From the NCBI GenBank assembly GCA_964465205.1, contig CAYXJO010000007.1, positions 5,228 to 69,227 on the forward strand: a stretch of DNA of 64,000 nt. Direction: 5' to 3'. This document shows positions 11,740 to 52,671 of the stretch, piece by piece. The position numbers were made by a program, and so were the translations under genes. The notes beneath the pieces are model-generated. The model saw only the letters and a list, made by a program, of their open reading frames with translations, searched no databases and was not told where the DNA came from. The stretch is from an uncultured Gammaproteobacteria bacterium. Its GTDB lineage: Bacteria; Patescibacteriota; Patescibacteriia; Magasanikbacterales; GWA2-37-8. Positions within the stretch are counted from its first letter, which is position 1. The number at the start of each line of letters is the position of its first letter.

Positions 11740-11843
11740 AAAAGCCGTACCACTAATAATTTTTTCGCTTTTCTCGCCCGCGAGGGCTCGAGGTGGTCCT
11801 GTGGGTCCAAACCCGCTCAAAAAATATTAGTGTTACGGCTTTT
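11740..11843 (+). repeat. Structured repeat element copy 1: outer stem aaaagccgtaccactaata/tattagtgttacggctttt enclosing the conserved core TTTTCGC..CGCCCGCGAGGGC..GGTCCTGTGGGTCCAAACCCGCTCAAAA
   Basis: Lies between the convergent deacetylase and trpS genes. Core shares a GCGA-tetraloop hairpin, a second hairpin and AACCCGC with copies at 21972, 24470, 34990 and 52586. A T-run follows the outer stem. Confidence 0.8.
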
Positions 11844-11865
11844 GTGTTTAATTAACTTTAGGCCT

Positions 11866-12840
11866 TTAGACAAATCCAATTTTCTGTTTGACTTCGGATA
11901 ATTTCTTGCTGGCAATCGCGTCGGCTTTTTTGGCGCCACTCGCCAAAATTTCTTTTACATCGGCATCAGAAATTTGGTGGAATTTATTTTGGAAATCGGT
12001 CAAGAATCCTACCATTACTTCGGCCAAACCTTTTTTGAAATCCCCATAGCCGTGGCCAGCGTACTCTTTTTCGATTTCTTTTACCGTTTTGCCCGAGAAG
12101 GAAGAATAGATCATTAGCAGGTTCGACAAGGCTGGTTTGTCGGCACCAGATTTGATTTCGGTGCCAGAATCAGTGACTGCGCGCATGATTTTTTTACGCG
12201 CCACTTCGGGATCGTCCAGTAGTGAAATGTAGTTGGCTGGTGAAGGGGCTGATTTACTCATTTTTTTGCTCGGGTCATCGAGTCCCATCACGCGTGCACC
12301 CTGTTTGCCAATATGTGCTTCGGGTACAATAAATGTTTCGCCAAAAGTCGAGTTAAATTGACGAGCGATAATGCGTGACAGCTCCACATGTTGGGTCTGG
12401 TCGTCGCCTACCGGTACTAGAGCCGTGTCATAAAGCAAGATATCTGCGGCCATAAGCACGGGGTAATCCATGAGCCCCATGTTAATATTTTGTTTGTGTT
12501 GTTTGGCTTTGTCTTTGTATTGGGTCATGCGTTCGAGCTCGGCCACTTTGGTCACGGTATTAAGCACCCAGGCGAGTTCGGCGTGCGCGGACACGCTCGA
12601 TTGTTGAAAAATAATTACGCGATTTGGATCCACGCCCAAAGCCAAATATGTTTTGGCCGCGTCGAGAATGTTTTTGCGTAGGTCATTGGGATCTTGGTGT
12701 ACGGTAATGGCATGCATATCCACCACGCAGTAAATGCAGTCATAATCATTTTGCAAAGCAACCCAGTTTTTGACTGCGCCCAAATAGTTGCCAATATGTA
12801 AGTTGTTGGTCGGCTGAATGCCGGAAAAAATGCGTTTCAT
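11866..12840 (-). CDS. trpS: Tryptophanyl-tRNA synthetase
   Basis: N-terminal FSGIQPTNNLHIGNYLGA (HIGH-type region) and KMSKS are present. 324 aa. Confidence 0.92.
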   Translation of the reverse strand: MKRIFSGIQPTNNLHIGNYLGAVKNWVALQNDYDCIYCVVDMHAITVHQDPNDLRKNILDAAKTYLALGVDPNRVIIFQQSSVSAHAELAWVLNTVTKVAELERMTQYKDKAKQHKQNINMGLMDYPVLMAADILLYDTALVPVGDDQTQHVELSRIIARQFNSTFGETFIVPEAHIGKQGARVMGLDDPSKKMSKSAPSPANYISLLDDPEVARKKIMRAVTDSGTEIKSGADKPALSNLLMIYSSFSGKTVKEIEKEYAGHGYGDFKKGLAEVMVGFLTDFQNKFHQISDADVKEILASGAKKADAIASKKLSEVKQKIGFV

Positions 12841-12917
12841 AAGTTATTATTATCGCGGGTATTTTACCCAATAAAGCCGATTTTGTAAAATGTTTGATTG
12901 TATGTTAAAGAATTAAA

Positions 12918-12956
12918 AACAAAGTAAAAAATACCCGGCCAACAACGATCGGGTGT
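12918..12956 (-). terminator. Intrinsic terminator after rlmH
   Basis: The minus-strand RNA reads aaaacacccgatcgttgttggccgggtattttttac, a roughly 10-bp stem followed by a T-run. Confidence 0.5.
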
Positions 12957-12957
12957 T

Positions 12958-13431
12958 TTAATGATGGTAAGCCCGCTCCGCACTGATCATCTGGGCGCGG
13001 TAAATTTGTTCCCACAATATTACTCGTGCCATTTGATGGGTGAAGGTGAGCGCAGAAAGAGAGAATTTTAGTTGAGCGATTTTTAAGATTGATTCATGCA
13101 ACCCCAGTGGTCCGCCAATGATAAAAGTTATTTTGCTGTTTTGTTCGGCGATAATTCTGTCTAGGTGCAATGCAAATTTTTCCGAAGAAAATTGATTACC
13201 GTTGGGGTCCAATGCGATGATGAAATCGTCTTTTGGCAAAGCCGACAAAATTTTTTTGGCTTCTTTTTCTATTATAACTTCCGGGCTATCTTTTTCGCCA
13301 AAACTTTCTTCACGCAATTCAGTAATTTTTATTTTCGCAAAAGCACCGAGACGTTTGAGGTATTCGGCTTCGGCTTCGCGCCAAAATGTTTCTTTTAATT
13401 TACCCAAACAGATTAAGTGTAAGTGGAACAT
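12958..13431 (-). CDS. rlmH: 23S rRNA (pseudouridine1915-N3)-methyltransferase RlmH (SPOUT)
   Basis: MFHLHLICLGKL..FIIALDPNGNQFSSEKFA..ITFIIGGPLGL..FSLSALTFTHQMARVIL matches RlmH. Start trimmed to the internal ATG. Confidence 0.8.
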   Translation of the reverse strand: MFHLHLICLGKLKETFWREAEAEYLKRLGAFAKIKITELREESFGEKDSPEVIIEKEAKKILSALPKDDFIIALDPNGNQFSSEKFALHLDRIIAEQNSKITFIIGGPLGLHESILKIAQLKFSLSALTFTHQMARVILWEQIYRAQMISAERAYHH

Positions 13432-13454
13432 AGTGGTTGTATGATAGCAAACAT

Positions 13455-13476: not shown

Positions 13477-13508
13477 GTGGCGTGTGTGATGGTGCTGATT
13501 TGTCAGCG

Positions 13509-19910: not shown

Positions 19911-21968
19911 ATGTCGATTGATTTCCAAAAAGAATTAAATAAAGAACAATTGGATGTGGTGCTCCACGGTGATGGGCCGTGTTTGGTTTTGGCGGGTGCT
20001 GGCAGTGGCAAAACACGTACCATTACCTATCGGGTGGCGTATTTGTTGGAGCAAGGCGTCGCTCCGGAGAATATACTTCTCGTGACTTTTACCAACAAAG
20101 CCGCCGCCGAGATGGTAGAACGCATGCAACATCTCACCGGTCGTAGTGAAAAGTTGCCGTGGGCCGGCACGTTCCACAGTATTGGTCACCGTATTTTGCG
20201 TCAACACGCGCGCGAGTTGGGATATGAAAATAATTTTTCTATTTTGGATAGCGACGACAGCGAATCGATCGTCAAACTTTGCGCCAAAGATTTTTCTGAC
20301 GGCGCGGGCGGCAAGAAGTTTGGCAAATTTCCCTCGACCAAAGTACTGCAGGGGATAATTTCTTTTGCTCGCAATGCCGAGACCACTATCGCCGATGTGC
20401 TTGATGCGCGTTATTCGCAGTTTGGCATGTGGGAAGAGGCGATTACCCAAGTGGTGCGTGAATACGAAGAAAAGAAAAAAGCCGCCAATTCTATGGACTT
20501 TGATGATCTGTTAGTAAACTGGTTGCGCCTACTCAACAATCCGGGAATCTTGAAAAAATATTCCGAACAGTTCAAATATATTTTGGTAGACGAATACCAA
20601 GACACCAACAAAATTCAGGCGTCGATCGTGTGCAAGCTCGCCCAAGCTCATCAAAATATTTTGGCAGTGGGGGATGATGCTCAGAGTATTTATTCTTTCC
20701 GGGCGGCGGATATCGAAAATATTTTACGATTCGAAAAAGTTTTTCCCAAAGCAAAAATTTTTAAGTTGTTGACCAATTATCGTAGTAGTCAAGAGATTCT
20801 GTCAGTGGCCAATTCAGTGATTGCCAACAATCCCAAACAATACAAAAAGGATTTAAAAACTATAATTAAAACCGGGGTGAAGCCGGAATTACGCCCGTTT
20901 GGTGAGGGGGCAGAAGAAGCCAACGCCATTGCCGAAAAGATTGCTTCGCTCATTCGTGGCGGAGTGCCACACAAAGAAATTGCGGTGCTATTCCGCGCGG
21001 CGCACCATAGCCAGCAGTTGGAGTTGGAACTGATGCGTTACGGTATTGATTATGATTATCGCGGTGGTCTGCGGTTTTTTGAACGTTCGCATGTAAAAGA
21101 CGTGTTGGCTTATTTGCGAGTATTAAATAATCTAGCCGACAGTGCCGCCTGGATGCGCGTATTGCTTTACGAAGATGGTATTGGCCCAGCGGCCGCCGGG
21201 AAAATTATCGAACACATTCAGGGTGTAAATAATATTGACGAAGTGCGCGCCGCCGGTGGCAGCTTGAGCGACAAAGCGCGCTCGGGTTGGAATAATTTTT
21301 TACAGATTTGGGATGGTATGTTAGAAATTGGCAAAGGTTCGCCTTCGAAATTAATTTTGCATATTGTCGATTCGCCCTATCGCGAATATTTGACTGCCGA
21401 ACGCATGGACGCCGATGATCGTATAGACGATATCAAGCAGTTGGCGGTATTTGCCGGTAAGTATGATAATTTGGAGGATTTCTTGGCCGAAGCGGCGTTG
21501 CAGGAGGCGTTTACCATTCAAAATAAAAAGAAAAGCGCCGATAAAATTAAAGATGAAAAAATAATTTTGTCGACCATTCATCAATCCAAGGGGTTGGAAT
21601 GGAGCGCGGTGTTTATAATCAATTTGGTGAACGGAGCTTTTCCGCATAGTCGGGCGTTGTCCGAAGAGAATGGAGTCGAAGAAGAGCGTAGGTTGTTTTA
21701 TGTGGCGGTAACTCGTGCTAAAAAATATTTGTATTTTTCGTACCCAATGCAGAGTGGTAAGAATGGTTGGGGAGAGGCGGTATTCCAAGGCCAGAGTCAA
21801 TTTTTGGACGAAATTGGCCCGGAGCTATTAAATGATAAATCGCTTTTGTCCAATCCCACGACTGTACTGCGCGGCGAACTCACTTACGAACCAGATGAAC
21901 AGTCGTATGGTGACAAGCCTCTAAATATTAAGCCCGGAAGTTTTTTGCGGAGCGTGGAGGATTTGTAG
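19911..21968 (+). CDS. pcrA: ATP-dependent DNA helicase, UvrD/PcrA/Rep family (SF1)
   Basis: LNKEQLDVVLHGDGPCLVLAGAGSGKTRTITYRVAYLL (motif I), DEYQDTN (motif II), and YRSSQEIL. Start set at ATG 19911 (MSIDFQKELN). The upstream part of the listed ORF is implausible. Confidence 0.9.
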   Translation: MSIDFQKELNKEQLDVVLHGDGPCLVLAGAGSGKTRTITYRVAYLLEQGVAPENILLVTFTNKAAAEMVERMQHLTGRSEKLPWAGTFHSIGHRILRQHARELGYENNFSILDSDDSESIVKLCAKDFSDGAGGKKFGKFPSTKVLQGIISFARNAETTIADVLDARYSQFGMWEEAITQVVREYEEKKKAANSMDFDDLLVNWLRLLNNPGILKKYSEQFKYILVDEYQDTNKIQASIVCKLAQAHQNILAVGDDAQSIYSFRAADIENILRFEKVFPKAKIFKLLTNYRSSQEILSVANSVIANNPKQYKKDLKTIIKTGVKPELRPFGEGAEEANAIAEKIASLIRGGVPHKEIAVLFRAAHHSQQLELELMRYGIDYDYRGGLRFFERSHVKDVLAYLRVLNNLADSAAWMRVLLYEDGIGPAAAGKIIEHIQGVNNIDEVRAAGGSLSDKARSGWNNFLQIWDGMLEIGKGSPSKLILHIVDSPYREYLTAERMDADDRIDDIKQLAVFAGKYDNLEDFLAEAALQEAFTIQNKKKSADKIKDEKIILSTIHQSKGLEWSAVFIINLVNGAFPHSRALSEENGVEEERRLFYVAVTRAKKYLYFSYPMQSGKNGWGEAVFQGQSQFLDEIGPELLNDKSLLSNPTTVLRGELTYEPDEQSYGDKPLNIKPGSFLRSVEDL

Positions 21969-21971: not shown

Positions 21972-22085
21972 AAAAATAAAATACGGGAAGTAATTTCTCT
22001 TGAGCGGGTTATGCGCCCACAGGCGCATCCTCGAGCCCTCGCGGGCGAGAAAAGCGAAAGAGATTTTACTTCCCGTATTTTATTG
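21972..22085 (-). repeat. Structured repeat element copy 2 (reverse orientation): outer stem aaaataaaatacgggaagtaa/ttacttcccgtattttatt enclosing the conserved core
   Basis: Minus-strand core TTTCGCTTTTCTCGCCCGCGAGGGCTCGAGGATGCGCCTGTGGGCGCATAACCCGCTCAA. Its second hairpin ATGCGCC/GGCGCAT is compensatory relative to other copies. Lies between convergent pcrA and ORF 22091..22687. Confidence 0.8.
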
Positions 22086-22090
22086 TGTGT

Positions 22091-22687
22091 TTACACTCCT
22101 TTTCCACTATACAACGCCGATTTGTTGGCGCTCAATTTTTCTTGCATTTTTTTGTACACATCGTACGGGTTTTTGATATTATCGAAACGGTCGTAAACCA
22201 CCTGGGTGCTGTTGCCACTTTTGTTGTTGGTTGATTGCATTTTGCCGGTATCAATCATGATGGAACCGGTACTAAATATTTTGCCGAGCACACCCACATT
22301 CACAAAGATATTGCGTACCTGATCATAATAGAGAGTAACAATATCTGCACCTACGAATCCGGATTTGATAATTAATCTTTTGCCGGTGATTATGTAATTC
22401 GTGACTTTATATCTCCAATAAGTAAAAATTGGAGTGAGCACTGCCAGTGCGAAAAATACGTAAGATGCAATTCGCGCATAACCAGCGCATTCTGATATTG
22501 GACGCGTCACGCCATTTACTGTGCACGTACCGGTGGTACTGCCGCCCACTTTGTAAAAAATCACCCCGACTACCACCATGATAATAATACCTACGATGCC
22601 CGATACCATAGCGGTGGTAGCATCTTGTTTGCCTTCCCACTCCACGGACTCACTTTGTTCCAATATTTTTTGGATTGTTGCGTCCAT
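22091..22687 (-). CDS. Membrane protein with bacterial PH domain (bPH_2 / YdbT-like)
   Basis: Two TM helices followed by YKVTNYIITGKRLIIKSGFVGADIVTLYYDQVRNIFVNVGVLGKIFSTGSIMIDTG, typical of bPH_2. Confidence 0.5.
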   Translation of the reverse strand: MDATIQKILEQSESVEWEGKQDATTAMVSGIVGIIIMVVVGVIFYKVGGSTTGTCTVNGVTRPISECAGYARIASYVFFALAVLTPIFTYWRYKVTNYIITGKRLIIKSGFVGADIVTLYYDQVRNIFVNVGVLGKIFSTGSIMIDTGKMQSTNNKSGNSTQVVYDRFDNIKNPYDVYKKMQEKLSANKSALYSGKGV

Positions 22688-22795
22688 AATATTAGATTAA
22701 TTAAATTACGAACAGTATTATATCATTTTTTGAGTTTGGTGGTAAAGCGTCGGAGTGGTTGGCAAGTGGGCGCTTTTTTGTTAAGATAAAGCCAT

Positions 22796-23440
22796 ATGCT
22801 TGATACTCGTCGCAAATATTTGCAGATTGCTTACAACGAAAGTATCGCGGCCGCCACCCGTGGTATTTTGGCATTGCCCAAATCCGACAAAATTATCGTA
22901 GAAGTGGGCACAGCCCTAATCAAACAAAAAGGCGAAGAGGCAATTCGAGAGATTAGAAATATTTGGGGTGGCTATCTGGTGGCGGATATCAAATGTATGG
23001 ACCGGGGTGGGGCCGAGGTGGCGATGGTGCGCGATGCGGGCGCGAACGCGGCGACGTGTTTGGGTTGGGCTCCGATCCCAACTATCGATGCTTTTATTTT
23101 CGAGTGCGCACAGCAGGGTGTGGATTCCATGGTGGACATGATGAATATTAAATTCCCGTTTGAGATTTTATCGAAATTAAAAAAGTTGCCAACAGCAGTG
23201 GTGTTGCATCGCGGAGTGGATGAGGGCGAGGGCGGCGCAAAAACGATTCCTTATGCAGATATCACTCGTATTCGCGGTAGTTACAATATTTTGATTTCAG
23301 TAGCGGGTGGAGAAACCGGTCGCGAAGTTATGCGCGCCCATTTCAATGGCGCTAATATCGCTGTAGCTTGGCGCGAATTTAATCCGTTATCAGACGAGGG
23401 CCGAAAAATAATCGCGGAGTTTTTACGTAAAACCAGATAA
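22796..23440 (+). CDS. 3-hexulose-6-phosphate synthase / KGPDC-family (OMPDC-fold) enzyme, paralog 1
   Basis: VEVGTALIK, LVADIKCMD (D-x-K-x-x-D) and AGANAATCLGWA match HPS/KGPDC signatures (vEiGTPlik, vaDlKtmD). Confidence 0.55.
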   Translation: MLDTRRKYLQIAYNESIAAATRGILALPKSDKIIVEVGTALIKQKGEEAIREIRNIWGGYLVADIKCMDRGGAEVAMVRDAGANAATCLGWAPIPTIDAFIFECAQQGVDSMVDMMNIKFPFEILSKLKKLPTAVVLHRGVDEGEGGAKTIPYADITRIRGSYNILISVAGGETGREVMRAHFNGANIAVAWREFNPLSDEGRKIIAEFLRKTR

Positions 23441-23441
23441 T

Positions 23442-24470
23442 ATGAAGATTGACGGTATTTTTGATAATATTTTTGAAATCGCCTTTTGGGCTTTTGTTAT
23501 TTTTTCTATTTTTCGTAAAAAAAAGAAAAAGTTCGATTTGGCCAGTGGCAAAACTGCACAGCAACTTGCTGACGAGGAATATGGGTTGGTGACAAATGAG
23601 GTGAAGAATCAGGAAACACAAAATGTTTCTACCCCGACTGTGTCGACACCGACTGCCACCACCATCGTGAGCGACAGAATAGAAATTGGTGGGCTGTTAG
23701 GGGCGATAGTGAATTCTCCGGCGGTGAGACAGGCAATACAGCAGGCGCAGAGCAGTAACCAGATGATGCAATTACAGAGTGCTTTCGCGGTGTCCACAGC
23801 GAGTGCCAAGGCGACGCCACTCGACAAAAAACAAAAATATTTACAGATTGCTCTAAATAATACGATTGAAGACGCCAAGCAAATTTTGGGACAATTACCA
23901 AATGCGGATCGTATTTTGGTGGAGGCCGGAACGCCACTTATCAAAAAATATGGATTGGATGTTATTCGTACTATTAAAATGCACAGCAGACGCAGTGCCT
24001 ATGTGGTAGCTGATCTCAAAACAGCGGATATGGGTGAACGCGAAGTGCGGCTCGCGGCGACAGCTGGTGCAGATGGTGTGGTTGCATTGGGTGTGGCGCC
24101 GATTGAAACCCTCGACGCGTTTATTGCTGAATGCCAAAAACAGAAAGTTGACGCCATGATCGATATGATGAATGTGGCTAGTCCACTCGAGATTTTGCAA
24201 AAATTAAAATTATTGCCACAGGTAGTAATTTTACATCGTGGGGTAGACGAAACCGATGCGGATAAAACCAAGTTTATTCCGTATTATCAAATCAATCAGA
24301 TTAAGGGCATGTATAATGTCATGATTGCGGTGGCGGGCGGAGATTCCGAGAAAGATATCGAAAGTGCCGTTTTCAACGGTGCTAATATCGTAGTGTTGTG
24401 GAAACATTTCTACAAATTTGACGGCAACGTCGGTGCTTTAGCACAAGAATTTCTGCAAGAAGTAAAATAA
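23442..24470 (+). CDS. HPS/KGPDC-family enzyme, paralog 2, with about 110-aa N-terminal extension (TM helix plus T/S/Q-rich linker)
   Basis: The C-terminal 230 aa (VEAGTPLIKKYG, VVADLKTADMG, AGADGVVALG) parallel the upstream paralog at around 45 percent identity. N-terminus IFEIAFWAFVIFSIF then KKKKK is a membrane anchor. The start codon abuts the upstream stop. Confidence 0.55.
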   Translation: MKIDGIFDNIFEIAFWAFVIFSIFRKKKKKFDLASGKTAQQLADEEYGLVTNEVKNQETQNVSTPTVSTPTATTIVSDRIEIGGLLGAIVNSPAVRQAIQQAQSSNQMMQLQSAFAVSTASAKATPLDKKQKYLQIALNNTIEDAKQILGQLPNADRILVEAGTPLIKKYGLDVIRTIKMHSRRSAYVVADLKTADMGEREVRLAATAGADGVVALGVAPIETLDAFIAECQKQKVDAMIDMMNVASPLEILQKLKLLPQVVILHRGVDETDADKTKFIPYYQINQIKGMYNVMIAVAGGDSEKDIESAVFNGANIVVLWKHFYKFDGNVGALAQEFLQEVK

Positions 24471-24575
24471 AAAACACGGGGGATAACATCTTTTTCGCTT
24501 TTTTCGCCCGCGAGGGCGAAAGGTGGGCCTAATGGCCCAAACCCGCTCAAAAGAAATTATCCCCCGTGTTTTATT
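24470..24575 (+). repeat. Structured repeat element copy 3: outer stem aaaaacacgggggataa/ttatcccccgtgttttt enclosing the core TTTTTCGCTTTTTTCGCCCGCGAGGGCGAAAGGTGGGCCTAATGGCCCAAACCCGCTCAAAAG
   Basis: Clean 10-bp hairpin UUUUUCGCCC-GCGA-GGGCGAAAGG and second hairpin TGGGCC-TAAT-GGCCCA. Lies between convergent HPS-2 and the SPFH gene. Confidence 0.85.
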
Positions 24576-24583
24576 TTAAATAT

Positions 24584-25339
24584 TTATTGCTTTCTACCCG
24601 CACTCAACGCCTTGATGCCGTCCATGATTTCGATCGGCAATGCGAAGATGGTCATCTTGCTCGGATCAGGTTGTAGCTTCTCCATAGTTTGGAGGGTACG
24701 CAGTGAGAGTGCGCCCGGAGTGCGCTGGAGTAGGTCCGCAGCTTTGGCGATGTTTTCCGCAGCCTGAATTTCACCCTGTGCTTTGATAATGATAGCGCGA
24801 CGTTCGCGTTCGGATTCGGCTTGTTTGGCCATGGCGCGTTTCATATCAGCGGGAATTTCAATGTCTTGGATTTTTACATCAGACACATCCACACCCCAAT
24901 TGGTAGTTACTTTGTCGATAATGATTTTGATCTCGGTCGCTATTTTTTCGCGAGCAGTGAGCAGTTCGTCTAATTCTACGCCGCCAATTACATCGCGCAG
25001 TGCGGCCATGGAATATTGGGAAATAGCATAAGTAAAATCGCGTACTTTGAGGGTGGCGTCTTCGGCTTTTTCTACAGTGAAGTACACTACGGCATTGATC
25101 CCTACCGGCACATTGTCTTTGGTAATCACTTCTTGTTGTGGGACATCCACGGTATTCACGCGAATATCTACTTTGTTCATATACTGAATACCTGGAAATA
25201 ACCAGGTGAGACCCGGAGTGCGGGTGCTGGTATATTTACCGAGTGTCAGTACGACTCCGCGTTCATATTGTTTGACCACGCGCAAACCGATGATCACAAA
25301 TACACCAATGATAATCAAGATAATATATATGATAGGCAT
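24584..25339 (-). CDS. SPFH/band-7 (stomatin/prohibitin-like) membrane protein
   Basis: N-terminal TM, then RVVKQYERGVVLTLGKY...VDIRVNTVDVPQQEVITKDNVPVGINAVVYF, a classical SPFH domain. 251 aa. Confidence 0.88.
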   Translation of the reverse strand: MPIIYIILIIIGVFVIIGLRVVKQYERGVVLTLGKYTSTRTPGLTWLFPGIQYMNKVDIRVNTVDVPQQEVITKDNVPVGINAVVYFTVEKAEDATLKVRDFTYAISQYSMAALRDVIGGVELDELLTAREKIATEIKIIIDKVTTNWGVDVSDVKIQDIEIPADMKRAMAKQAESERERRAIIIKAQGEIQAAENIAKAADLLQRTPGALSLRTLQTMEKLQPDPSKMTIFALPIEIMDGIKALSAGRKQ

Positions 25340-25466
25340 ATTAATTTAAATTATTAATAATTATTAGTATTATAGCGCAAGCTATTTGATCTGGCAACTA
25401 CGGTTGTATGTCTTTTTGCTTGTGACAAAATTTGCTATAATACCCGCGTATTAATTAATCAATTAT

Positions 25467-27578
25467 ATGTACTATACACAAGTGCGAAAAATATCGGTAA
25501 CCTGGCTGGTTTTGGCCATTATAGTCGGGTTGGTGGGAGGTTTTTATCCTGGCAGTATCAATTCGGTAAACGCCGCTACCGCCAAGCCTGTATCCAAAAC
25601 AGTGGTAAAAAAACCAGCGACCACCAAAAAAGTTGTCTCTACCAAAAAACCAGCGACCACTTTTAAACAAATCAAAAAGTTTACTTCGGCCAATGATTTC
25701 AAAAATTATGTCATGAAAGGACTCGCCCTGCAGTCCAATTCGTATTCCATGGGGCGAATGAATTTTTCACAGACGACTGCCGAAGTGGCTTTATCTGCAG
25801 CACCGACTATCAATGCAATTAGTGAAAGTGATTTGGGTTTGTCGTCTGGTGCCAAAACCGGTCTGGCCATGAGCCCAAATCCGGCATCAGATTATTCGTC
25901 CACCAATGTACAAGTTTTGGGTATTGATGAGCCGGATATTATCAAAAATAATGGCAAAGAAATTTTTTATTCTACTTGGAGCGTGACACCGGTGGTGAAG
26001 CCGGACAGCTCATCGTCTTTGGCGGTGGCACGACCGGATTATTGGCGTCAATCTGGCGAGACCAAGGTGATCAACGCTTTCCCGCCGGAAGATTTAAAAA
26101 TGATTACGACGATTGATTTAAAAGGAGATTTACTTTTGAGCGGTAACAATTTGGCGGTGTTTACCTATGATAAAATTGTGGGTTATGACATCACCGATCG
26201 CACGAATCCCAAAGCCAAGTGGACGATAAAATACGAAAATAACAACAGACTGGTGGGGGCGCGTTTGTATCAGGGTAAAATATATTTTGTCACTCGACAA
26301 GATATTAATGTGGAAAATCCGTGTCCGATACGACCACTATCTGTGAATGGTATGACCACCGAAATCGTTTGTGCCAATATTTATCACCCCACTGCTTTTG
26401 CTCCGGTGTCCAATGTATTTTCGGTGTTTAGTTTGGATATGAATACGGGCGCAGTGCTCAACAAAAATTCTTTTGTCGGCACCGACAGCTATCAATCGGT
26501 GTTGTATTTTTCGCCTAATGCGATTTATGTAACGTATTATACCGCCGGCAGTGTGTTTGAACGTAATTATTTATTCTTGACCGAAAATGCCGACATGTTA
26601 CCGGCCGGAATAGTAGAAAAATTAAAAAAGTTACGCGGTTATGACATCAGCGACCAAGCCAAGTTATACGAAATGGAATACTTATTGCAGACTTGGGCGT
26701 ATAGTTTGGATCAGAATAGTAACAAAGATGCCAAATTAAAATTGGAAAATGATTTGAACAATCGCGTAGATAAATTTTATGCGCGCCATTTGCGTGAATT
26801 CGAAAAAACCGGAATTGTGAAAATTGGCTTGGATGGTTTGCAGGTGGTGGCGGTAGGGGAAGTGCCGGGGCAATTGTTGAATCAGTTTTCTCTGGATGAA
26901 TATGGTGGTAATTTGCGCGCCGCCGTGACGGTGGGGCAGCGCGGTATGTTGATTTTTGACAACTGGAATAGCCAAAATACCCGTAATGATGTTTATGTGT
27001 TAAATGGCAGTATGCAAACGGTGGGTAGTGTGAAAGATCTGGGCAAAACTGAACGGATCTATTCGGCGCGATTTGTAGGTGATAGGGGATATCTGGTCAC
27101 ATTTCGCCAAACTGATCCATTCTATGTGTTGGATTTGTCCGTGCCTAACAAACCAGTGGTAAAGGGTGAACTCAAGATCCCCGGATATTCTTCTTACCTA
27201 CATCCATTGGGCGAACATCGCGTGTTGGGTATTGGCAAAGAGGACAACAAAGTAAAGGTATCATTGTTTGATGCGAGCGACCCCGCCAATCCAACCGAGC
27301 TCTCTAAATATATTCTAAATGAATATTGGTCGGAGGCGATTAATAATCATCACGCGTTTCTATCCGACAGTCGCCATCAAGTATTCTTCTTGCCTGGTTC
27401 GCAGGGTGGATACATATTCTCGTATGCCAATGGTGAATTGAAGTTGTCCAAGGCCGTGAGCGATATCAATCCAACCCGAGCATTATATATGGACAATTAT
27501 CTATATATTGTGGCCGAAGATAAAATGGTGGTGCTAAATGAGCTTACTTGGGAAAAGGTAAACGAGTATTCGTTCTAA
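25467..27578 (+). CDS. Large secreted protein with C-terminal beta-propeller-like domain (Beta_propel/PF09826-like)
   Basis: Signal-anchor VTWLVLAIIVGLVGG. C-terminal YLVTFRQTDPFYVLDLSVPNKPVVKGELKIPGYSSYLHPLG resembles the YL.TF..DPLFVIDLS.P....GEL...G.S.YLHP signature. Confidence 0.45.
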   Translation: MYYTQVRKISVTWLVLAIIVGLVGGFYPGSINSVNAATAKPVSKTVVKKPATTKKVVSTKKPATTFKQIKKFTSANDFKNYVMKGLALQSNSYSMGRMNFSQTTAEVALSAAPTINAISESDLGLSSGAKTGLAMSPNPASDYSSTNVQVLGIDEPDIIKNNGKEIFYSTWSVTPVVKPDSSSSLAVARPDYWRQSGETKVINAFPPEDLKMITTIDLKGDLLLSGNNLAVFTYDKIVGYDITDRTNPKAKWTIKYENNNRLVGARLYQGKIYFVTRQDINVENPCPIRPLSVNGMTTEIVCANIYHPTAFAPVSNVFSVFSLDMNTGAVLNKNSFVGTDSYQSVLYFSPNAIYVTYYTAGSVFERNYLFLTENADMLPAGIVEKLKKLRGYDISDQAKLYEMEYLLQTWAYSLDQNSNKDAKLKLENDLNNRVDKFYARHLREFEKTGIVKIGLDGLQVVAVGEVPGQLLNQFSLDEYGGNLRAAVTVGQRGMLIFDNWNSQNTRNDVYVLNGSMQTVGSVKDLGKTERIYSARFVGDRGYLVTFRQTDPFYVLDLSVPNKPVVKGELKIPGYSSYLHPLGEHRVLGIGKEDNKVKVSLFDASDPANPTELSKYILNEYWSEAINNHHAFLSDSRHQVFFLPGSQGGYIFSYANGELKLSKAVSDINPTRALYMDNYLYIVAEDKMVVLNELTWEKVNEYSF

Positions 27579-27593
27579 AATTATAACAAAAAA

Positions 27594-27625
27594 ATCACCG
27601 GTGTTGAGCCGGTGGTTTTTTATTT
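27594..27625. terminator. Bidirectional intrinsic terminator (caccggtgttgagccggtg flanked by A and T runs)
   Basis: Lies between convergent genes ending at 27578 and 27624. Confidence 0.55.
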
Positions 27626-28256
27626 AAGTTTTAGATTGTGATTGTACAAATTCGTAAAATTGTAAAAAATCTTTGACGATTATGGTCGGATTTTCTCTTT
27701 TCAGGTTTTCTTCATTTTGGTATCCACCCAGGATGCCGACAATAGTTTCGATGCCAGCTTCTTTAGCCTCTATCATGTCGCCGGTGGAGTCGGTGATAAA
27801 AATAACATCTTTTGGATCGATGTGGTATTTCTCAAACAGTAAACGAAACTTTTTTACTTTGCTAGCATGGATTTCATTGCCTAGTATTTCTTTAAAACAA
27901 GATAGTATCTGATGTTTGCGCAGATAGGTTCGGATAATGTCGCTGGTGGTGCTAGATATAATAAAAAGCGGAAAACGTTCGGATAGTTTTTGGATGATCA
28001 GTTGCTTTTGTTCATCGATGTCTAGTTTTTCAAAACGCTTGCCATATTCTTCAAAAAAATTTACTTTGGGACCAAATTCTTCTTCGGATTTGGTTTCGTT
28101 GATATTGCCGTTGAAAAATGATTGGTATTTTTCCAAAGTAAGACTTGGTTTGGATATTTTGTTTATCTCAAAAGCGATTGATAGGGAATCGGCGATTACT
28201 CCGTCGAAGTCAAAGAAAATGCAAACTCTCGTTCCTGTCTTGGGTCTGTTTTCCAT
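27624..28256 (-). CDS. HAD-superfamily hydrolase (phosphatase)
   Basis: VCIFFDFDGVIADS is HAD motif I (DxDGx). Downstream IFITDSTGDMIEAKEAG is motif III/IV-like. ATG at 28256. Confidence 0.75.
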   Translation of the reverse strand: MENRPKTGTRVCIFFDFDGVIADSLSIAFEINKISKPSLTLEKYQSFFNGNINETKSEEEFGPKVNFFEEYGKRFEKLDIDEQKQLIIQKLSERFPLFIISSTTSDIIRTYLRKHQILSCFKEILGNEIHASKVKKFRLLFEKYHIDPKDVIFITDSTGDMIEAKEAGIETIVGILGGYQNEENLKRENPTIIVKDFLQFYEFVQSQSKT

Positions 28257-28294
28257 ATAAAATAAAGATTGTAACAACAAATAAAAAATACCGT

Positions 28295-28792
28295 TTATGG
28301 CTTGGATAAATTATTTAGTATATCTTTAATGGCTTCATCTAAACTTCGGCTGACATCAATATTGGTTCCGTAATCAAACCGGGTAACGAGTCCAAAAACT
28401 GCCACTGTCGCACCTTCACCATATGTTTTGGAACGTTTACTGTCCCTTTCAATACAAACTTCTAGTGGTATTTTGAGCGTAAATATATAGTGCGGAAACG
28501 GCAAATTTTGGATGAGGTGTTCAATAACTTCTTTATGATAAAAGCAAGCGTCAAAAATGATTATTTTGCCGCCCGACAATTTTTCTCTTGCCGCTGGGAT
28601 AACCAGCTCATTTGCTTTTATAAAATTCTCTACTGAAATACAAGGTGCGTTGGGCGGCATTTTATCCAATCCATTTTTTTCGAGTACCTCATCCATTCCA
28701 ATACATTCCGCATCAAGTTTTTGGGCGAGCGTCTCGGCGATAGTAGATTTGCCAGACCCAAGTGGTCCGCGAATTATTATATAGTAGCTCAT
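28295..28792 (-). CDS. P-loop NTPase, small kinase-like protein (AAA_33/zeta-like fold)
   Basis: MSYYIIIRGPLGSGKSTIAETLAQKL is a Walker A. About 165 aa. ATG at 28792. Confidence 0.55.
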   Translation of the reverse strand: MSYYIIIRGPLGSGKSTIAETLAQKLDAECIGMDEVLEKNGLDKMPPNAPCISVENFIKANELVIPAAREKLSGGKIIIFDACFYHKEVIEHLIQNLPFPHYIFTLKIPLEVCIERDSKRSKTYGEGATVAVFGLVTRFDYGTNIDVSRSLDEAIKDILNNLSKP

Positions 28793-28951
28793 GTTATTTT
28801 TTAGTAATTTGCCCAAGCCCCAGTTTAATATGCACTTCTCATTTTTCGCCAGATATACCGTGTTAGGCGAGGGCTTAATTAATTACATTATTGATTATAT
28901 ATAAAGAGCAAATAAGAGCGCGGCGCCCCCCGAAGCGTTTGCGAACATACC

Positions 28952-29509
28952 TTATTTCAATAATAATTTAATTGCTTCGTATTTAGGTCTGACAATCTCT
29001 CTGGACTCATCAAAATTTAGTTGTTTCCACTTATTTTCTAGTTTTCGTTTAACAGAATCTTTTGCTTCTTTTCTTGATAGTTTTTCATAATAAAACGCGC
29101 ACTGAAAAAGGCCAGCAATATCGTTAAAAGCACTTAGAGTATCAGCCTCAATCAATATTTTAGCTTCCAATGTTTTAGGTAAAATTTGTTGAGAGCCCCG
29201 GTGCGAAATTATACAGTCCTTAACCCTTTCAATTTTTTCTGGGGGATACCCAAGTTCAGATAATTTTTCTTCTGCAATTTTCGCACCGGTGAGATGATGA
29301 TTTTCTCTACCACAAACAATAGACCCGATATCGTGGAGCCAAGCAGCAATTATCACAATTTCTTTGTCGGCGCCTAATTTATCCGCTAATGCTTCAGAAT
29401 ATTCTACAACTGGAATAAAATGATAAAGAAATGGATCATATCCATAATTGCTGCTTGGCTTTTTGCACTCGCTCTCAACAAATTTTTTAATTTTTTCGAT
29501 TATGTTCAT
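28952..29509 (-). CDS. HD-domain phosphohydrolase
   Basis: IIAAWLHDIG (HD motif) and further His/Asp residues. About 185 aa. Confidence 0.65.
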   Translation of the reverse strand: MNIIEKIKKFVESECKKPSSNYGYDPFLYHFIPVVEYSEALADKLGADKEIVIIAAWLHDIGSIVCGRENHHLTGAKIAEEKLSELGYPPEKIERVKDCIISHRGSQQILPKTLEAKILIEADTLSAFNDIAGLFQCAFYYEKLSRKEAKDSVKRKLENKWKQLNFDESREIVRPKYEAIKLLLK

Positions 29510-29651
29510 ATTTAATAGTAAAAAGCACACTCGTTAATGTCGCTGAATATTTCGGTATATATGAAGTCCTGAGTACTCGGAATTTGGGTGAAGGCTCTTG
29601 AAAGAGCCGCAGCCAGATATGCCGCGTTAGACGATGTATTTTTTAAAACAA

Positions 29652-30050
29652 TTATCTTATTAATGAAAAAATTTTATCTTTTATGGCATCTCGTACCTTT
29701 CGGGTTTCATCAAGGGTCGCCTCGAAAGGATCGGCAACGTTCCAAAAAATTATTTTCTTCGATTTAAGTAAATAGTCCGGACATTGTTTTTCTTCACACA
29801 TAACTATAATCCTTTCGCTCCCATCTATTATTTTTTGATTAATAGTTTTCACTGTTGCTTGTGAGATATCAATGCCTAATTCAAGCATAGTTTCAACTAT
29901 AATTGGGGCAGGATTTTTATATTTTACCGGCGTATCTTCTTGTATTCCGGCACTCCATGAATTGCTTGAATTTGTGAAATTGTTATAAAAAGCCTCAGCC
30001 ATTTGACTTCTTCCAACATTGCCGTAACAGACGAATAAAAATTTTTTCAT
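29652..30050 (-). CDS. Low-molecular-weight protein tyrosine phosphatase / ArsC-type (LMWPc)
   Basis: MKKFLFVCYGNVGRSQMAEAFY contains the CX5R P-loop. 132 aa. Confidence 0.82.
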   Translation of the reverse strand: MKKFLFVCYGNVGRSQMAEAFYNNFTNSSNSWSAGIQEDTPVKYKNPAPIIVETMLELGIDISQATVKTINQKIIDGSERIIVMCEEKQCPDYLLKSKKIIFWNVADPFEATLDETRKVRDAIKDKIFSLIR

Positions 30051-30097
30051 ATCATTTCGAACGTTGTTTGTTTTAAAAAATATTTCACCTAACGTAT

Positions 30098-30279
30098 CCG
30101 AGTATGCGAAGTTCGCTTTTCGGATTTATTAGTTAATTTTGTTAATTGGCTTGAGTCTATTTTATCGCACTATTCTTTAAATTGCCACCCAACGGAGAAA
30201 AGTGAATTTGGGTCGAAAAAGTTTTGCACTCCTTGATTTAAAAGTCTAATAACGCAAAACTTTTGAGCCGCATACTCGG
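30098..30279. repeat. Nested inverted repeats: outer 11-bp inverted repeat ccgagtatgcg/cgcatactcgg (30098-30108, 30269-30279) and inner 11-bp inverted repeat aaaagttttgc/gcaaaactttt (30217-30227, 30254-30264)
   Basis: Both pairs are perfect. The region shares the 10-mer gaatttgggt and tactcgg with 29571-29590 on the other side of the LMW-PTP gene. Confidence 0.55.
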
Positions 30280-30423
30280 TGTTGTCTGATGTAAATTTTT
30301 ATCTTCGTCTTTACTAGTTTAAACTTTGTTTATCGTATAGAAAATTCAAATTTTTAAATTAAAAGTTTTTGTTTTGCCTAAAGGCAAAACGATTATTTGG
30401 GGGCAATTTTATTTTTTATTTTT

Positions 30424-31464: not shown

Positions 31465-31733
31465 AGAATTAAAAAAATAAAAAATAAAATTGCCCCCAAA
31501 TAATCCGCGAAGCGGAAAAACTTTTAATTTAAAAATTTGAATTTTCGTCTTTGTTCAACGCACTAAAGCTTGAAATTACCACAAAGATAAAAATTTATTT
31601 CAGACAACTACCTTTATCACAACTCGTAGCCAAAATGGCTAAAATATAATAAAATTTTGGTTGAAAATAGGTTATACCCCCTGGGGGTATGAATACATAT
31701 AATAATACCATCCACACGGACAACGTCAACCAC

Positions 31734-31762
31734 TTGACAAATTCCCCAACTATATATATAAT
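31734..31762 (+). promoter_or_regulatory. Consensus sigma70 promoter (TTGACA - 17 nt - TATAAT), likely for the rpsL-rpsG-fusA operon, with about 210-nt leader
   Basis: cacTTGACAaattccccaactatataTATAATgtcc. It overlaps the listed 68-aa ORF 31595..31801, which is therefore rejected. Confidence 0.6.
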
Positions 31763-31974
31763 GTCCTCAGAATGTAATTTCCCCAAAAACACGAGTTGCA
31801 ACAGTGTTCCGGGGATTAAAAAGTTGGCTGATCATAGGTCAGTCTTTTATTTTCTCGCAAAGTGAGAGAAAAAGAAATTTATTTCTTTTTCCGAGCGAAG
31901 CGCAGAAAACATGCCCGAAGGGCTTATTTAAAGAAATTTTTAATAAAGTAACGAATATCGTTACGAAATAACTT

Positions 31975-34989: not shown

Positions 34990-35100
34990 TAAAAAGCCGG
35001 CACAACTGATATTTTTTCGCTTTTTTCGCGCGCGAGCGCGAAAGGATGATCCGGTGGGATCATAACCCGCGAAAAAGCATCAGTTGTGCCGGCTTTTGTT
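34990..35100 (+). repeat. Structured repeat element copy 4: outer stem aaaaagccggcacaactgat/atcagttgtgccggctttt enclosing the core TTTTTTCGCTTTTTTCGCGCGCGAGCGCGAAAGGATGATCCGGTGGGATCATAACCCGCGAAAAAG
   Basis: Hairpin 1 stem is CGCGC/GCGCG rather than CGCCC/GGGCG (compensatory), with the GCGA loop kept. Hairpin 2 is ATGATCC/GGATCAT (compensatory). AACCCGC is conserved. Sits directly after the fusA stop. Confidence 0.85.
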
Positions 35101-50095: not shown

Positions 50096-50165
50096 AAACT
50101 AACTAACAAAACCGCTTACAACAAGCGGTTTTGTTAGTTAAAAAAGCCGCCCGGGTAGGGCGGCG
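50096..50165. terminator. Two convergent intrinsic terminators: aaaaccgctt-acaac-aagcggtttt (+, for secY) and gccgccc-gggta-gggcggc with T6 on the minus strand (for ORF 50192..50533)
   Basis: 10-bp and 7-bp perfect stems, each followed by T-runs on its own strand. Confidence 0.6.
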
Positions 50166-50625: not shown

Positions 50626-50676
50626 ATTATACCATAATATCACACTATTGTCAAGGCAATGGGTTTGTGATATACT
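50626..50676. promoter_or_regulatory. Face-to-face divergent promoters with overlapping -35 hexamers (ttgtcaa read on both strands): minus-strand TTGACA-17-TATAAT for ORF 50192..50533, plus-strand TTGTCA-17-TATACT for adk
   Basis: Minus promoter is -35 at 50649-50654 and -10 at 50626-50631. Plus promoter is -35 at 50648-50653 and -10 at 50671-50676. Confidence 0.55.
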
Positions 50677-50718
50677 ATTTTTGTGTAATATTAGCCAAAA
50701 AAATAATTTTTTAACTTC

Positions 50719-51387
50719 ATGAAACCAATTATCGTACTATTGGGAGCTCCCGGTTCCGGTAAAGGTACACAAGCCAAAAGAATGGCAAAAAAATATAATT
50801 ATCGCCAAATTTCTACCGGTGATCTTTTTCGGGCTTTGCTTGCAGAAAATAAAGTGGCCGAAAAAGATCGTAAGATTATCGCTGGTATCAAAGATGGCAA
50901 AATGGTGCCCGATGAATTTGTATACAAGTTGGTTTTTGCGGCCATAGAAGAAGCAATGTCACTCGGCCACAAAGTCGTGCTAGATGGGGTAATACGCAAT
51001 GTGAATCAAGCCAAAGAGTTTTGGAAATATTTCAAGCAACACAAATTAACCGACGATGTGGTGTTTGTGGAGATTGCTATTACCGACCGCGAATCATTCG
51101 TACGTCTGATGCACCGTCGCGTATGTGTCAAATGTGGCAATATCATACCGTGGACCCCAGAAACCACTGATTGGAACCATTGCCCCAAATGTGGCGGTGA
51201 TCTCCAAAATCGTGCGGACGACACAGTGGAGGCAGTGCGTGCTCGTCTCAAGGCGCAAGGTAATTCGATAATTCAGCCAATTATTAAATATTTACAAAAA
51301 GTCGCGCCGGTGAAAAGTATAAATGGCATGGAAGAGATTTCTTTGATCGCGCGTGAATTGGAGCAGGTGGTTAAAAGAACAATATAG
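50719..51387 (+). CDS. adk: Adenylate kinase (long form with Zn-binding lid CxxC...CxxC)
   Basis: IVLLGAPGSGKGTQAK. Lid CVKCGNI...CPKCGG. Confidence 0.93.
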   Translation: MKPIIVLLGAPGSGKGTQAKRMAKKYNYRQISTGDLFRALLAENKVAEKDRKIIAGIKDGKMVPDEFVYKLVFAAIEEAMSLGHKVVLDGVIRNVNQAKEFWKYFKQHKLTDDVVFVEIAITDRESFVRLMHRRVCVKCGNIIPWTPETTDWNHCPKCGGDLQNRADDTVEAVRARLKAQGNSIIQPIIKYLQKVAPVKSINGMEEISLIARELEQVVKRTI

Positions 51388-51388
51388 T

Positions 51389-52201
51389 ATGCTTATTAAG
51401 ACTAGACAAGATATCGCTCAAATAGCCAAAAGCGGAAGAATACTCGGCGATATTTTGAGCAAGGTGGCGAAAATGGCTGCGCCCGGAGTTTCTACTTTTG
51501 AAATTGATAAAATGGCGGAAAAATTGATTACCAAAGCGGGTGGCCGACCATCGTTTAAAGGGTACATGTCACATCATTATGATCCACCATTTCCTTGTAC
51601 TATTTGCGCGTCGCGCAATCATGAGCTGGTACATGGGATTGCAAGCAAAGATATAATTTTACAAGATGGCGATAATTTTAGTATTGATATTGGCATGGAG
51701 TGGCCATACAAAAAAGGCGTGCGTGGGTTTTTTACCGATACCGCCATTACCGTGGCTGTAGGTAGTGTCGATCCAGAAAACCGCGAACTGATGCGAGTAA
51801 CCAGACAATCGTTGGAAGCGGGTATAAAAGCGGTAAAGCCTGGTAGGCCTTTGTCTGATATCGGCAAAGCAGTGGAGGATTATGTGAAATCACAAGGTAA
51901 ATACAGCATTATTCGTGATTTGGTCGGCCACGGCGTTGGCCACGAAGTACACGAGCAGCCGGCTATTCCAAATTACTACGATAAAAATTTGGATAAATTT
52001 ATTATGCGTCCCGGCATGGTGTTGGCTATTGAACCCATGGTGTCGTTGGGTGATTGGCGCGTGCGAGTCTCAGACGATGGTTGGACTATAGAAATGGCTG
52101 ATGGCAGTCTGTGTGCGCATTATGAGCATACGGTGGTGGTGACATCGCGTGGCCACGAGGTTGTGACCCGTCGACCCGGAGAAAAAAATGAAAAGCCATA
52201 A
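51389..52201 (+). CDS. map: Methionine aminopeptidase type I
   Basis: MLIKTRQDIAQIAKSGRILGD...HGVGHEVHEQP...AIEPM. Confidence 0.9.
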   Translation: MLIKTRQDIAQIAKSGRILGDILSKVAKMAAPGVSTFEIDKMAEKLITKAGGRPSFKGYMSHHYDPPFPCTICASRNHELVHGIASKDIILQDGDNFSIDIGMEWPYKKGVRGFFTDTAITVAVGSVDPENRELMRVTRQSLEAGIKAVKPGRPLSDIGKAVEDYVKSQGKYSIIRDLVGHGVGHEVHEQPAIPNYYDKNLDKFIMRPGMVLAIEPMVSLGDWRVRVSDDGWTIEMADGSLCAHYEHTVVVTSRGHEVVTRRPGEKNEKP

Positions 52202-52210
52202 TTGTGTTTT

Positions 52211-52597
52211 ATGAATATTCTAGCGCTAGATTTTGGCACAAAAAATATTGGTTTGGCTTGGTGTGAGACTGGGATAGGTGCGGTTTTGCCGTATGGAAAA
52301 TTAGACGCTCAGAAGTGGAGAACAGAACTGGTAAAATTGATAAAAGAAGAACGAATTGAACGATTGATAGTTGGTATGCCAATGGGTGTGGGCGGCAGCG
52401 GAGAAAAGAATGTTACGCGTGTACAGAATTTCGTCACAGAATTAAAAAGCATGATAGATGTGCCGGTAGAATTTTTTGATGAACGGTTCTCGAGCCAGCA
52501 AGCCGATCGCACTCCGGGCGGTGTGTCGCGCGACGAGAAATCTGCTATGATAATTTTGGAGGGATATCTTATTTTCCAAAAACGCAAAGGTAATTAA
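52211..52597 (+). CDS. ruvX: Holliday junction resolvase-like protein YqgF/RuvX
   Basis: MNILALDFGTKNIGLAWCE...RLIVGMPM. Confidence 0.85.
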   Translation: MNILALDFGTKNIGLAWCETGIGAVLPYGKLDAQKWRTELVKLIKEERIERLIVGMPMGVGGSGEKNVTRVQNFVTELKSMIDVPVEFFDERFSSQQADRTPGGVSRDEKSAMIILEGYLIFQKRKGN

Positions 52598-52671
52598 CTT
52601 TTTACTTTCCTCGCCCGCGAGGGCTCAGGGTGGGCCTGTGGGCCCAAACCCGTAAAAAATTAATTACCTTT
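52586..52671 (+). repeat. Structured repeat element copy 5 (shortened 5' part): outer stem aaggtaattaactttttac/gtaaaaaattaattacctt enclosing CTCGCCCGCGAGGGCTCAGGGTGGGCCTGTGGGCCCAAACCCGTAAAAAA
   Basis: The 5' outer arm overlaps the last codons of ruvX. Both hairpins are conserved (GCGA loop; TGGGCC-TGTG-GGCCCA). Confidence 0.75.

Follow-up and report, generated by a model that had tools for sequence, protein, structure and literature searches.

A structured repeat at the apex of locus-specific palindromic hairpins in Candidatus Magasanikbacteria

Introduction

Correia, ERIC/YPAL, RUP, BOX and SPRITE elements are non-coding sequences of about 100 nt with inverted ends that lie in intergenic regions or at gene 3′ ends and form stable hairpins in transcripts (PMC10969869, PMC3049150). 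[quoted passage not shown] There is also precedent for mobile DNA landing inside palindromic hairpins, namely IS1397, ISKpn1, IS621 and ISPpu9/10 (PMC1525189, PMC3116915, PMC3333891). In the present study a repeat family is described from a 64-kb stretch of metagenomic DNA (from the 72.5-kb NCBI contig CAYXJO010000007.1, positions 5,228 to 69,227; referred to as the window), where five copies of a conserved, non-coding unit lie within hairpins whose outer stems differ from locus to locus. The unit is probably a non-autonomous element, similar to repetitive extragenic palindromic (REP) sequences and MITEs, that occupies the apex of palindromic hairpins already present and leaves the host hairpin preserved.

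The element resembles REP/BIME and REPIN sequences in being a short extragenic palindrome at gene 3′ ends, present in multiple copies, in both orientations and with compensated changes. Those sequences, however, are palindromes of 20-40 nt with a conserved stem, a variable spacer and inverted doublets, whereas here it is the apex that is conserved, a three-way junction of 65-85 nt, on basal stems that are locus-specific and unrelated; no GTAG motif was seen. No Y1 or RAYT gene was seen either among the called genes of the comparison loci L072-L079 or the scanned open reading frames (ORFs) of the window, a very limited search of genome fragments only. As in MITEs, the unit is small, non-coding and multicopy, has terminal inverted repeats and is present or absent at orthologous sites. 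It differs from the hairpin-forming MITEs in that the junction and loops, and not the termini, are best conserved, that neither a partner insertion sequence nor a related autonomous element was found, and that it lies consistently at the dyad of a host palindrome, in a bacterium of the candidate phyla radiation (CPR) with a tiny genome. Correia and IS630-type elements duplicate a TA dinucleotide, with which the paired TA steps at the inferred ends of the present element would be compatible.

Integron attC sites, the ends of IS200/IS605 elements and PATE sequences are comparable in that structure is recognized, unpaired bases are conserved, pairs covary in Watson-Crick fashion and the sites follow gene 3′ ends. 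The build of attC is the opposite of that of the element, with conserved outer R″/R′ boxes (RYYYAAC / GTTRRRY) and a variable centre, and in its cassette arrays, accompanied by an integrase, the sites all point the same way; here orientations are mixed, the neighbours are housekeeping genes and no integrase gene was seen. With bidirectional terminators part of the element-bearing hairpins, above all those between convergent genes, have in common an A-tract, a GC-rich stem and a T-tract after stop codons, as well as stems homologous to plain terminators of a relative, but an ordinary terminator loop has 3-8 nt in place of the conserved structured insert. Class C group II introns recognize terminator hairpins by structure and not by sequence. 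They insert just downstream of the hairpin, however, and are six-domain elements of more than 600 nt, usually with a reverse transcriptase gene; no such features were found in the element, and the intron models of Rfam gave no match. Because the target palindromes have no sequence similarity to one another, it would be their shape that is recognized.

Results

A covariance model (R1) was built from the five window copies with a three-way-junction structure and was used to search the window with filters off. Exactly five copies were found at 92-97 bits, and the best unrelated match scored 20 bits; model and alignment thus agreed with the five positions given in a preliminary description of this DNA. 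A core pattern fitting three of the copies matched just those three in the window, with 0 matches expected from 100 shuffles. Copy c1 (11740-11843, plus strand, 93.4 bits) has outer arms at 11740-11759 and 11825-11843 around the conserved element at 11760-11824, and lies between a polysaccharide deacetylase gene (stop 11737-11739) and a convergent class-I tRNA synthetase gene (end 11866). Copy c2 (21972-22088, minus strand, 92.2 bits; element 21997-22062, perfect outer arms 21975-21993 and 22066-22084) is situated between the convergent genes pcrA (stop 21966-21968) and bPH_2 (end 22091). Copy c3 (24466-24577, plus strand, 97.3 bits; element 24490-24553, perfect outer arms 24471-24486 and 24557-24572) separates an OMPdecase/HUMPS gene (stop 24468-24470) from a convergent Band_7 gene (end 24584). 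The remaining two copies lie between genes of the same strand: c4 (34992-35097, plus strand, 91.9 bits; element 35012-35077, outer arms 34992-35011 and 35078-35097) is preceded by the fusA stop codon and followed 200 nt downstream by a PurF-like gene, and c5 (52583-52674, plus strand, 96.6 bits; element 52599-52659, outer arms 52583-52598 and 52660-52674) lies between ruvX and recO (start 52683). The stop codon adjoins c1 and c3 directly (0 nt), is 7 nt away from c4 and lies about 3-6 nt from c2 on either flank, while that of ruvX is located inside the c5 stem, in line with the earlier statement of 0-10 nt; the gene names given before also agreed with Pfam (polysaccharide deacetylase, UvrD/PcrA, OMPdecase/HUMPS, EF-G and RuvX). 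The density of copies in the window is about one per 13 kb.

Folding of each full hairpin was far more stable than that of its shuffles, with z scores between -6.4 and -11.4, and much the same was true of the opposite strands. The core alignment of the five copies comprised about 65 nt, with 38 invariant columns of 88 in alignment A2. The core formerly described as common to all five copies was found as such in c1-c4, c2 being the reverse complement, but c5 reads TTTTTAC...GTAAAAA and AACCCGT in place of TTTTCGC and AACCCGC, a variant that is itself a compensated change in the inner helix P1. Likewise, the outer stems were unrelated between copies, as had been stated, but the T-run said to end each of them is missing after the stem of c5. 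In c1-c4 the stop codon is followed by a stable hairpin and a T-tract, the sequence pattern of a predicted intrinsic terminator, which c5 does not show. The last five codons and stop of ruvX (R-K-G-N-stop; 52583-52597) form the 5′ arm of c5, and related RuvX proteins have similar Lys/Arg-rich tails (KRKSN, KRKDN).

Relatives of the window source, as judged by RuvX and PcrA similarity, were Magasanikbacteria, and the family belongs to a subclade of Candidatus Magasanikbacteria (Patescibacteria/CPR), which are uncultured groundwater bacteria. One genome per species was scanned with a pattern and metagenome contigs with a looser pattern, and hits were confirmed by covariance model. The pattern scan gave at least 11 copies in the Candidatus Magasanikiibacteriota metagenome-assembled genome (MAG) JBAYHH01 and the looser pattern gave 53 loci on metagenome contigs; 56 distinct copies from this MAG and the contigs were confirmed by the model. 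The proposed search for further copies thus gave copies in related Magasanikbacteria, confirmed by covariance model. Viral contigs contained no family copy, and pattern hits in Acidobacteriota and similar phyla were dismissed as chance, as the covariance model gave no match. One copy (69 bits) was located on a contig labelled as an uncultured Gammaproteobacteria bin (L016, CAYZHG010000095.1), which is syntenic with the element-bearing contig L054 at 76-88% identity and is probably, judging from its sequence, a mis-binned Patescibacteria contig. Some copies were decayed and scored 46-51 bits (L055/L001 at 46 bits; L030 4243). Exact-protein look-ups for near-identical strains returned the source contig and one contig of 1.3 kb breaking inside c2, and nothing else. 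The latter, assembled from short reads and publicly available, matches the window at 100% identity and breaks off midway through c2 (L018 1257-1317), indicating that the repeat breaks assemblies, as expected at repeats.

MAG JBAYHH01 also contains a second, unrelated repeat of the same build (L044 1032-1110 and L026 about 7905-7975), in which a conserved apex, TAATATATTTTTAGC-ACTCTACGAGCGAAGCGAGCTTG-GCTAAAAATATATTA, lies within locus-specific stems of 12-13 bp. Each copy of this second repeat was found 25-45 nt downstream of a copy of the family described here, called family A.

All copies fold as a three-way junction of about 65-85 nt. The locus-specific outer stem runs into the AT-rich P1 (TTTTCGC / GC-TC-AAAA), followed by TTT(C/T)(C/T)T, the hairpin P2 with its GCGA loop and a short purine-rich strand ending in GG; then come P3 with a variable 4-nt loop and (T)AACCC, which leads back into P1. 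The P1 ends, (A)TAAT..TTTTCGC / GC(TC)AAAA..ATTA, pair in nearly all copies and constitute terminal inverted repeats. P1 has a conserved 2x2 internal loop, was paired to 84% overall and showed compensated change in 18 of its 19 pairs. The loop of P3 was often UNCG-like (TGCG in 16 copies, TTCG in nine). In one copy (L059 857-962) a palindrome of 20 nt (CCTGCCTACCGGCAGGCAGG) is nested in P2.

Covariation was assessed in alignment A4 of the 56 copies. In the five window copies 17 of 31 pairs had changed on both sides, compared with 6.8 in shuffles, and the changes named in the preliminary description, CGCCC/GGGCG against CGCGC/GCGCG in hairpin 1 and TGGGCC, ATGATCC and ATGCGCC in hairpin 2, were borne out. 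Over the 56 copies 86% of cells paired (59% when shuffled, 35-48% when partners were slid), 445 cells had changed on both sides compared with 130 in shuffles, and 25 of 30 pairs showed compensated change. The stems were nearly perfect, even in old copies, and comprised 1433 Watson-Crick, eight G.U and 41 A.C pairs, with G.U rarer than A.C in every gene context; this avoidance of G.U is hidden in the sample of five window copies. In an RNA whose structure is under selection, G.U intermediates are normally numerous. Here they were scarce, no fixed strand relative to transcription was found, and to judge from the sequences the stems behave in a way that fits DNA palindromes or sequences that must fold on both strands. 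Selection on RNA structure, which had been deduced earlier from the compensatory changes, was accordingly not supported: the changes are almost all of Watson-Crick type, G.U is depleted, either orientation occurs and only about half of all copies have terminator-like A/T tracts. The G.U and A.C counts were also tried as a pointer to the RNA strand and rejected, because G.U is rarer in every gene context and the counts bear no relation to which strand is transcribed. As single stem mismatches, A.C or C.A were five times commoner than G.U (41 and 8) whatever the gene orientation, which could be a signature of strand-biased mutation or repair.

Mean pairwise identity was 0.85 in the unpaired core, 0.73 in the paired core and 0.37 in the outer stems. 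GCGA was found in 54 of the 56 copies, and GG and AACCC in all of them. Such conservation of unpaired bases across genomes of about 70% identity exceeds the needs of a plain MITE and makes a sequence-specific function possible; recognition by a mobilizing enzyme, a junction-binding host factor or gene conversion among copies could be responsible.

Similarity between the outer arms of different copies was limited to A-runs. At least seven copies of JBAYHH01 had ATAATCTTTTCGC...GCTCAAAGAATAT in common, in a nearly identical unit with the ends ATAATC...GAATAT, and differed in their outer stems, indicating that the start of the outer stem marks the boundary of the repeated unit. That the outer stems had been carried along from a donor site was ruled out, since no two non-orthologous copies had a common outer stem. 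Plain counterparts of the host hairpins were found in a relative, L076 (PcrA 86% identical in amino acids, 76-84% in nucleotides), which contains no element in 16 kb. After fusA it has a plain palindrome, AAAAAGACGGTAC-TGCCAT/ATGGTA-T-GTACCGTCTTTTT, where c4 of the window reads AAAAAGCCGGCAC-AACTGAT-[element]-ATCAGTT-GTGCCGGCTTTT; the basal arms are identical at 11 of 13 and 10 of 12 positions, and both differences are compensated. After pcrA it has a plain terminator, AAAAAAAAGG-ACGGG-GGGTG-CCCGT-CC, and c2 has the same stem base, ACGGG/CCCGT, in AAAAT-ACGGG-AAGTAA-[element]-TTACTT-CCCGT-ATTTT. The proposed check for a missing core at orthologous terminators therefore gave a positive result at both sites. 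A plain terminator follows pcrA in L077 too (78% identity), and in L079 the ruvX stop is spanned by a plain palindrome, AAAAATAATTAAC...GTTAATTATTTTT, with TAATTAAC/GTTAATTA in common with the upper stem of c5. These homologies were read directly from the sequences, automatic MAFFT alignment of the terminator regions being unreliable. For c1 and c3 there was no comparison with a close relative, as no homologue of the HUMPS gene beside c3 was closer than 53%. A likeness of the outer stem of L050, turned inside out, to a plain terminator of L031 was treated as possibly due to chance.

These genomes, the window included, are rich in long perfect palindromes whose loops measure 0-6 nt. An element-free palindrome with an 18-bp stem and a 5-nt loop at 50100-50140 is of the kind occupied elsewhere, a plain palindromic bidirectional terminator with 16-bp arms lies at 56764-56797 between a PDDEXK_1-type gene and a tRNA, and another plain palindromic terminator (15-bp stem, 5-nt loop) lies at 58588-58622. 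The homologous plain palindromes of L076 and L079, together with the frequency of long palindromes, indicate that the element occupies the apex of pre-existing hairpins.

Occupied and plain or empty sites were found at fusA, pcrA, ruvX, clpP, rpoC and other loci. The two palindromes of the window at 56764-56797 and 58588-58622 have element-bearing counterparts, the former in the matching intergenic region of L009/L056 and the latter at the orthologous position in L005/L063 and L061. Orthologous element sites were empty in L054, L055, L031 and L061. In L072 (RuvX 82% identical) only the 5′ arm and TTTTTTGCTTT are left at the ruvX-recO junction, a remnant whose sequence is consistent with a deletion between short TTT repeats; a similar string in L079 is better read as the 3′ arm of that locus's own plain palindrome. 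Two pairs of copies that look orthologous, L040/L057 and L061/L063, differed mainly by compensated changes, with flanks about 68-75% identical. L040 and L057 have in common the rare P1 variant GTTCGC...GCTCACAA (flanks 68% identical), and L061 and L063 the stem base AAAACAGCC.

Gene contexts, taken from a simple ORF model, were convergent in 17 copies, sense-tandem in 16, antisense-tandem in 10 and divergent in six. At the ruvX-recO junction the window copy is in plus orientation and the copy of L078 (RuvX 62% identical; 75 bits) in minus orientation, within homologous outer stems (CGCAAAGGTAATTAA/TTAATTACCTTTGCG and GCGCAAAGATAATTAG/CTCATTATCTTTAAGC). A strand-specific role in mRNA is therefore unlikely. 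The two orientations may be due to independent hits on one palindrome or to a flip of the apex by recombination of the arms; Correia elements can invert, according to a review of MITEs (PMC10969869). A bias towards one replication strand, as expected for transposition of single-stranded DNA, was not found by GC skew (15 against 24). Both an A-tract and a T-tract flanked 13 of the 17 convergent copies, and a T-tract followed eight of the 16 sense-tandem copies, about half of all copies having none.

A search of the whole window with Rfam 15 at gathering thresholds matched a tRNA only. When two copies were searched at E values up to 10, only miRNA-precursor models, that is generic long hairpins, appeared far below threshold, and hammerhead, twister, twister-sister, pistol, hatchet, intron and small RNA (sRNA) models gave no match. 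A tRNA-like structure, a hammerhead and domain V of group II introns were rejected by eye as well as by Rfam, there being no CUGANGA and no rightly placed AGC triad. No description of the element was found in the literature searched on CPR repeats and on MITEs in terminators. The previous statement that it corresponds to no described RNA family therefore stands, and it is filed here as a small interspersed palindromic repeat outside any named family, undescribed as far as the Rfam and literature searches go.

Some other features of the window were recorded. The tRNA mentioned above (82 nt, minus strand, long variable arm, 56 bits) is at 56803-56884, beside the palindrome at 56764-56797; next to the corresponding tRNA, L072 (7472-9731) and L073 (6459-8718) have a LAGLIDADG_3 gene and a gene for a protein of 410 aa with HTH_28/HTH_29 domains, in which no catalytic domain was detected, and both genes are missing from the window. 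The region at 22000-32000 contains two OMPdecase/HUMPS genes and genes for Band_7, beta-propeller, HAD, kinase, HD and LMWPc proteins, and at its left end c2 and c3 are oriented oppositely. Between 28 and 32 kb GC content falls to 0.36 and GC skew is reversed. This block is missing in L076, where pcrA, a gene of 202 aa (at the position of bPH_2 in the window) and SET adjoin rpsL directly. A unique long hairpin at 853-950, between two minus-strand ORFs, has a perfect stem of 22 bp (AAGAACAGTATATACAATTTTG) and a 54-nt loop unrelated to the family; no other copy was found in any fetched locus.

Discussion

The plain terminators of L076 with stems homologous to those of c4 and c2, the presence and absence at orthologous sites and the unrelated outer stems support one of the two readings offered in the preliminary description, a MITE- or REP-like element within terminators, and we consider a non-autonomous element of this kind at the apex of pre-existing hairpins to be the probable explanation. 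In most well-resolved cases the host hairpin is a long bidirectional intrinsic terminator, with an A-tract and a T-tract, after a stop codon. That the element has moved is what we infer from comparing these sites. Its AT-rich ends pair as P1 and its interior folds into P2 and P3; owing to this pairing and the compact junction the host hairpin would be lengthened and not opened, and would still close on either strand, so that the element would be tolerated. It would be moved, now or formerly, in trans by an enzyme acting on folded or palindromic DNA, for which a DDE transposase with TA as its target, or an enzyme specific for structures of single-stranded DNA, would be candidates. The helices might be kept because copies unable to fold would disable the host hairpin, because the fold is the feature recognized by the enzyme, or both. 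A mobile element occupying apexes would explain the locus-specific stems, the covariation by Watson-Crick changes only, the free orientation and the turnover, and also the assembly break in c2 and the second repeat of like build in JBAYHH01.

Several observations weigh against this interpretation. All comparisons between occupied and empty sites were made between genomes 66-88% identical, and no near-identical pair gave a clean contrast. No transposase or other mobilizing domain was found by Pfam in 20 ORFs of the window, whole genomes not having been searched, and neither solo halves nor a longer autonomous element with the same ends was found in about 400 kb. A paired TA step peaked 10 or 13 nt from the CGC anchor, that is inside the conserved (A)TAAT end, and AT and AA/TT gave matching peaks, so that a target-site duplication is inseparable from the (A)TAAT terminus. 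Unpaired junction and loop bases are the best conserved, with 16 of 26 columns at 95% or more, a pattern not seen in simple MITEs, and the seeming persistence of orthologous copies across deep divergence argues for a function in resident copies. A matching A-tract was present in none of the 10 antisense-tandem copies, not every host hairpin being an evident terminator, and two empty sites lacked any palindrome. The last two observations imply that some host hairpins are not terminators, or that stems are sometimes built after insertion.

That outer stems are generally made at or after insertion, by inverted copying of one flank through template switching or palindrome extension, is highly unlikely. 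It would account for the 5′ arm at ruvX being coding sequence (the KRKGN-stop tail, which is similar in homologues), for the missing 3′ arm in L072 and L061, for the lack of a palindrome at the empty sites of L054 and for nearly perfect stems even in old copies, but the outer stems of c4 and c2 have plain homologues in L076, the ruvX stop of L079 lies in a plain palindrome, and long plain palindromes are common. A more specific version of the apex-occupying mobile element, in which folded single-stranded DNA is moved in the manner of REP/REPIN or IS200/IS605 sequences by an HUH (Y1) transposase, for example a RAYT, must be rated unlikely. The three-way junction would be the recognized DNA structure and apexes would be hit as single strands, in keeping with insertion at palindrome apexes, with Watson-Crick covariation and conserved unpaired bases as at DNA hairpin recombination sites, with extragenic copies at gene 3′ ends in both orientations and with the lack of an evident direct target duplication. 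On the other hand, orientation showed no bias by GC skew or replication strand, the very limited search saw no Y1 transposase, and the element has no GTAG-like 5′ tetranucleotide by a simple hairpin and is larger than a REP.

The other reading in the preliminary description, a conserved small structured RNA, is disfavoured by the depletion of G.U and the mixed orientation, which point away from an RNA gene. In its extreme form, a new class of self-cleaving ribozyme or an autonomous sRNA gene with the locus-specific stem as closing helix, it is extremely improbable: the compactness of the three-helix junction, its stable tetraloops, the about 16 unpaired nucleotides that do not vary, the lack of resemblance to any known family and the occurrence in multiple copies, as is common for repeat-associated ribozymes, would suit it, but no conserved promoter goes with the element, transcription may use either strand, and even the permissive Rfam search matched no ribozyme. 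A structured module selected by the host and not primarily selfish DNA, which caps terminator or 3′-untranslated-region hairpins, has rarely spread and is kept at each locus by selection, is less improbable than that, yet we think it improbable too. The junction would then be a unit for tertiary folding or for binding in a sequence-specific way; it could bind a protein, block 3′ exonucleases or signal processing, and it would agree with the unpaired bases being better conserved than the covarying helices, with the invariant GCGA of GNRA type and the UNCG-like loops of P3, with orthologues that differ only by compensated changes and with the two tracts at most convergent copies. It is contradicted by the free orientation relative to transcription (sense and antisense copies, and both orientations at ruvX-recO), by a near-absence of G.U that is unusual for RNA under structural selection, by presence or absence between relatives at the same housekeeping genes and by the decayed copies. 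Distinctly unlikely, finally, is that the junction is the recognition structure of an undescribed enzyme inserting at any hairpin apex by shape, or a domesticated protein-binding or catalytic module attached to terminators; if true, this would explain why the bases of the junction and loops do not vary between genomes with housekeeping genes only about 70% identical, and also two unrelated repeat families with a conserved apex and a unique base.

For the discovery of RNAs the element is a caution that strong covariation alone is no proof of RNA function; here the scarcity of G.U and the free orientation are the warning signs. A conserved apex in locus-specific palindromes is unusual for bacterial repeats, and targeting by shape would be of interest for mechanisms of transposition. 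The capped and uncapped terminators constitute a natural set for studying RNA polymerase at branched terminator hairpins, and the element explains some of the assembly breaks in these MAGs. Genomes of CPR/Patescibacteria are very small and are usually described as repeat-poor, and a structured interspersed repeat would add to this picture.

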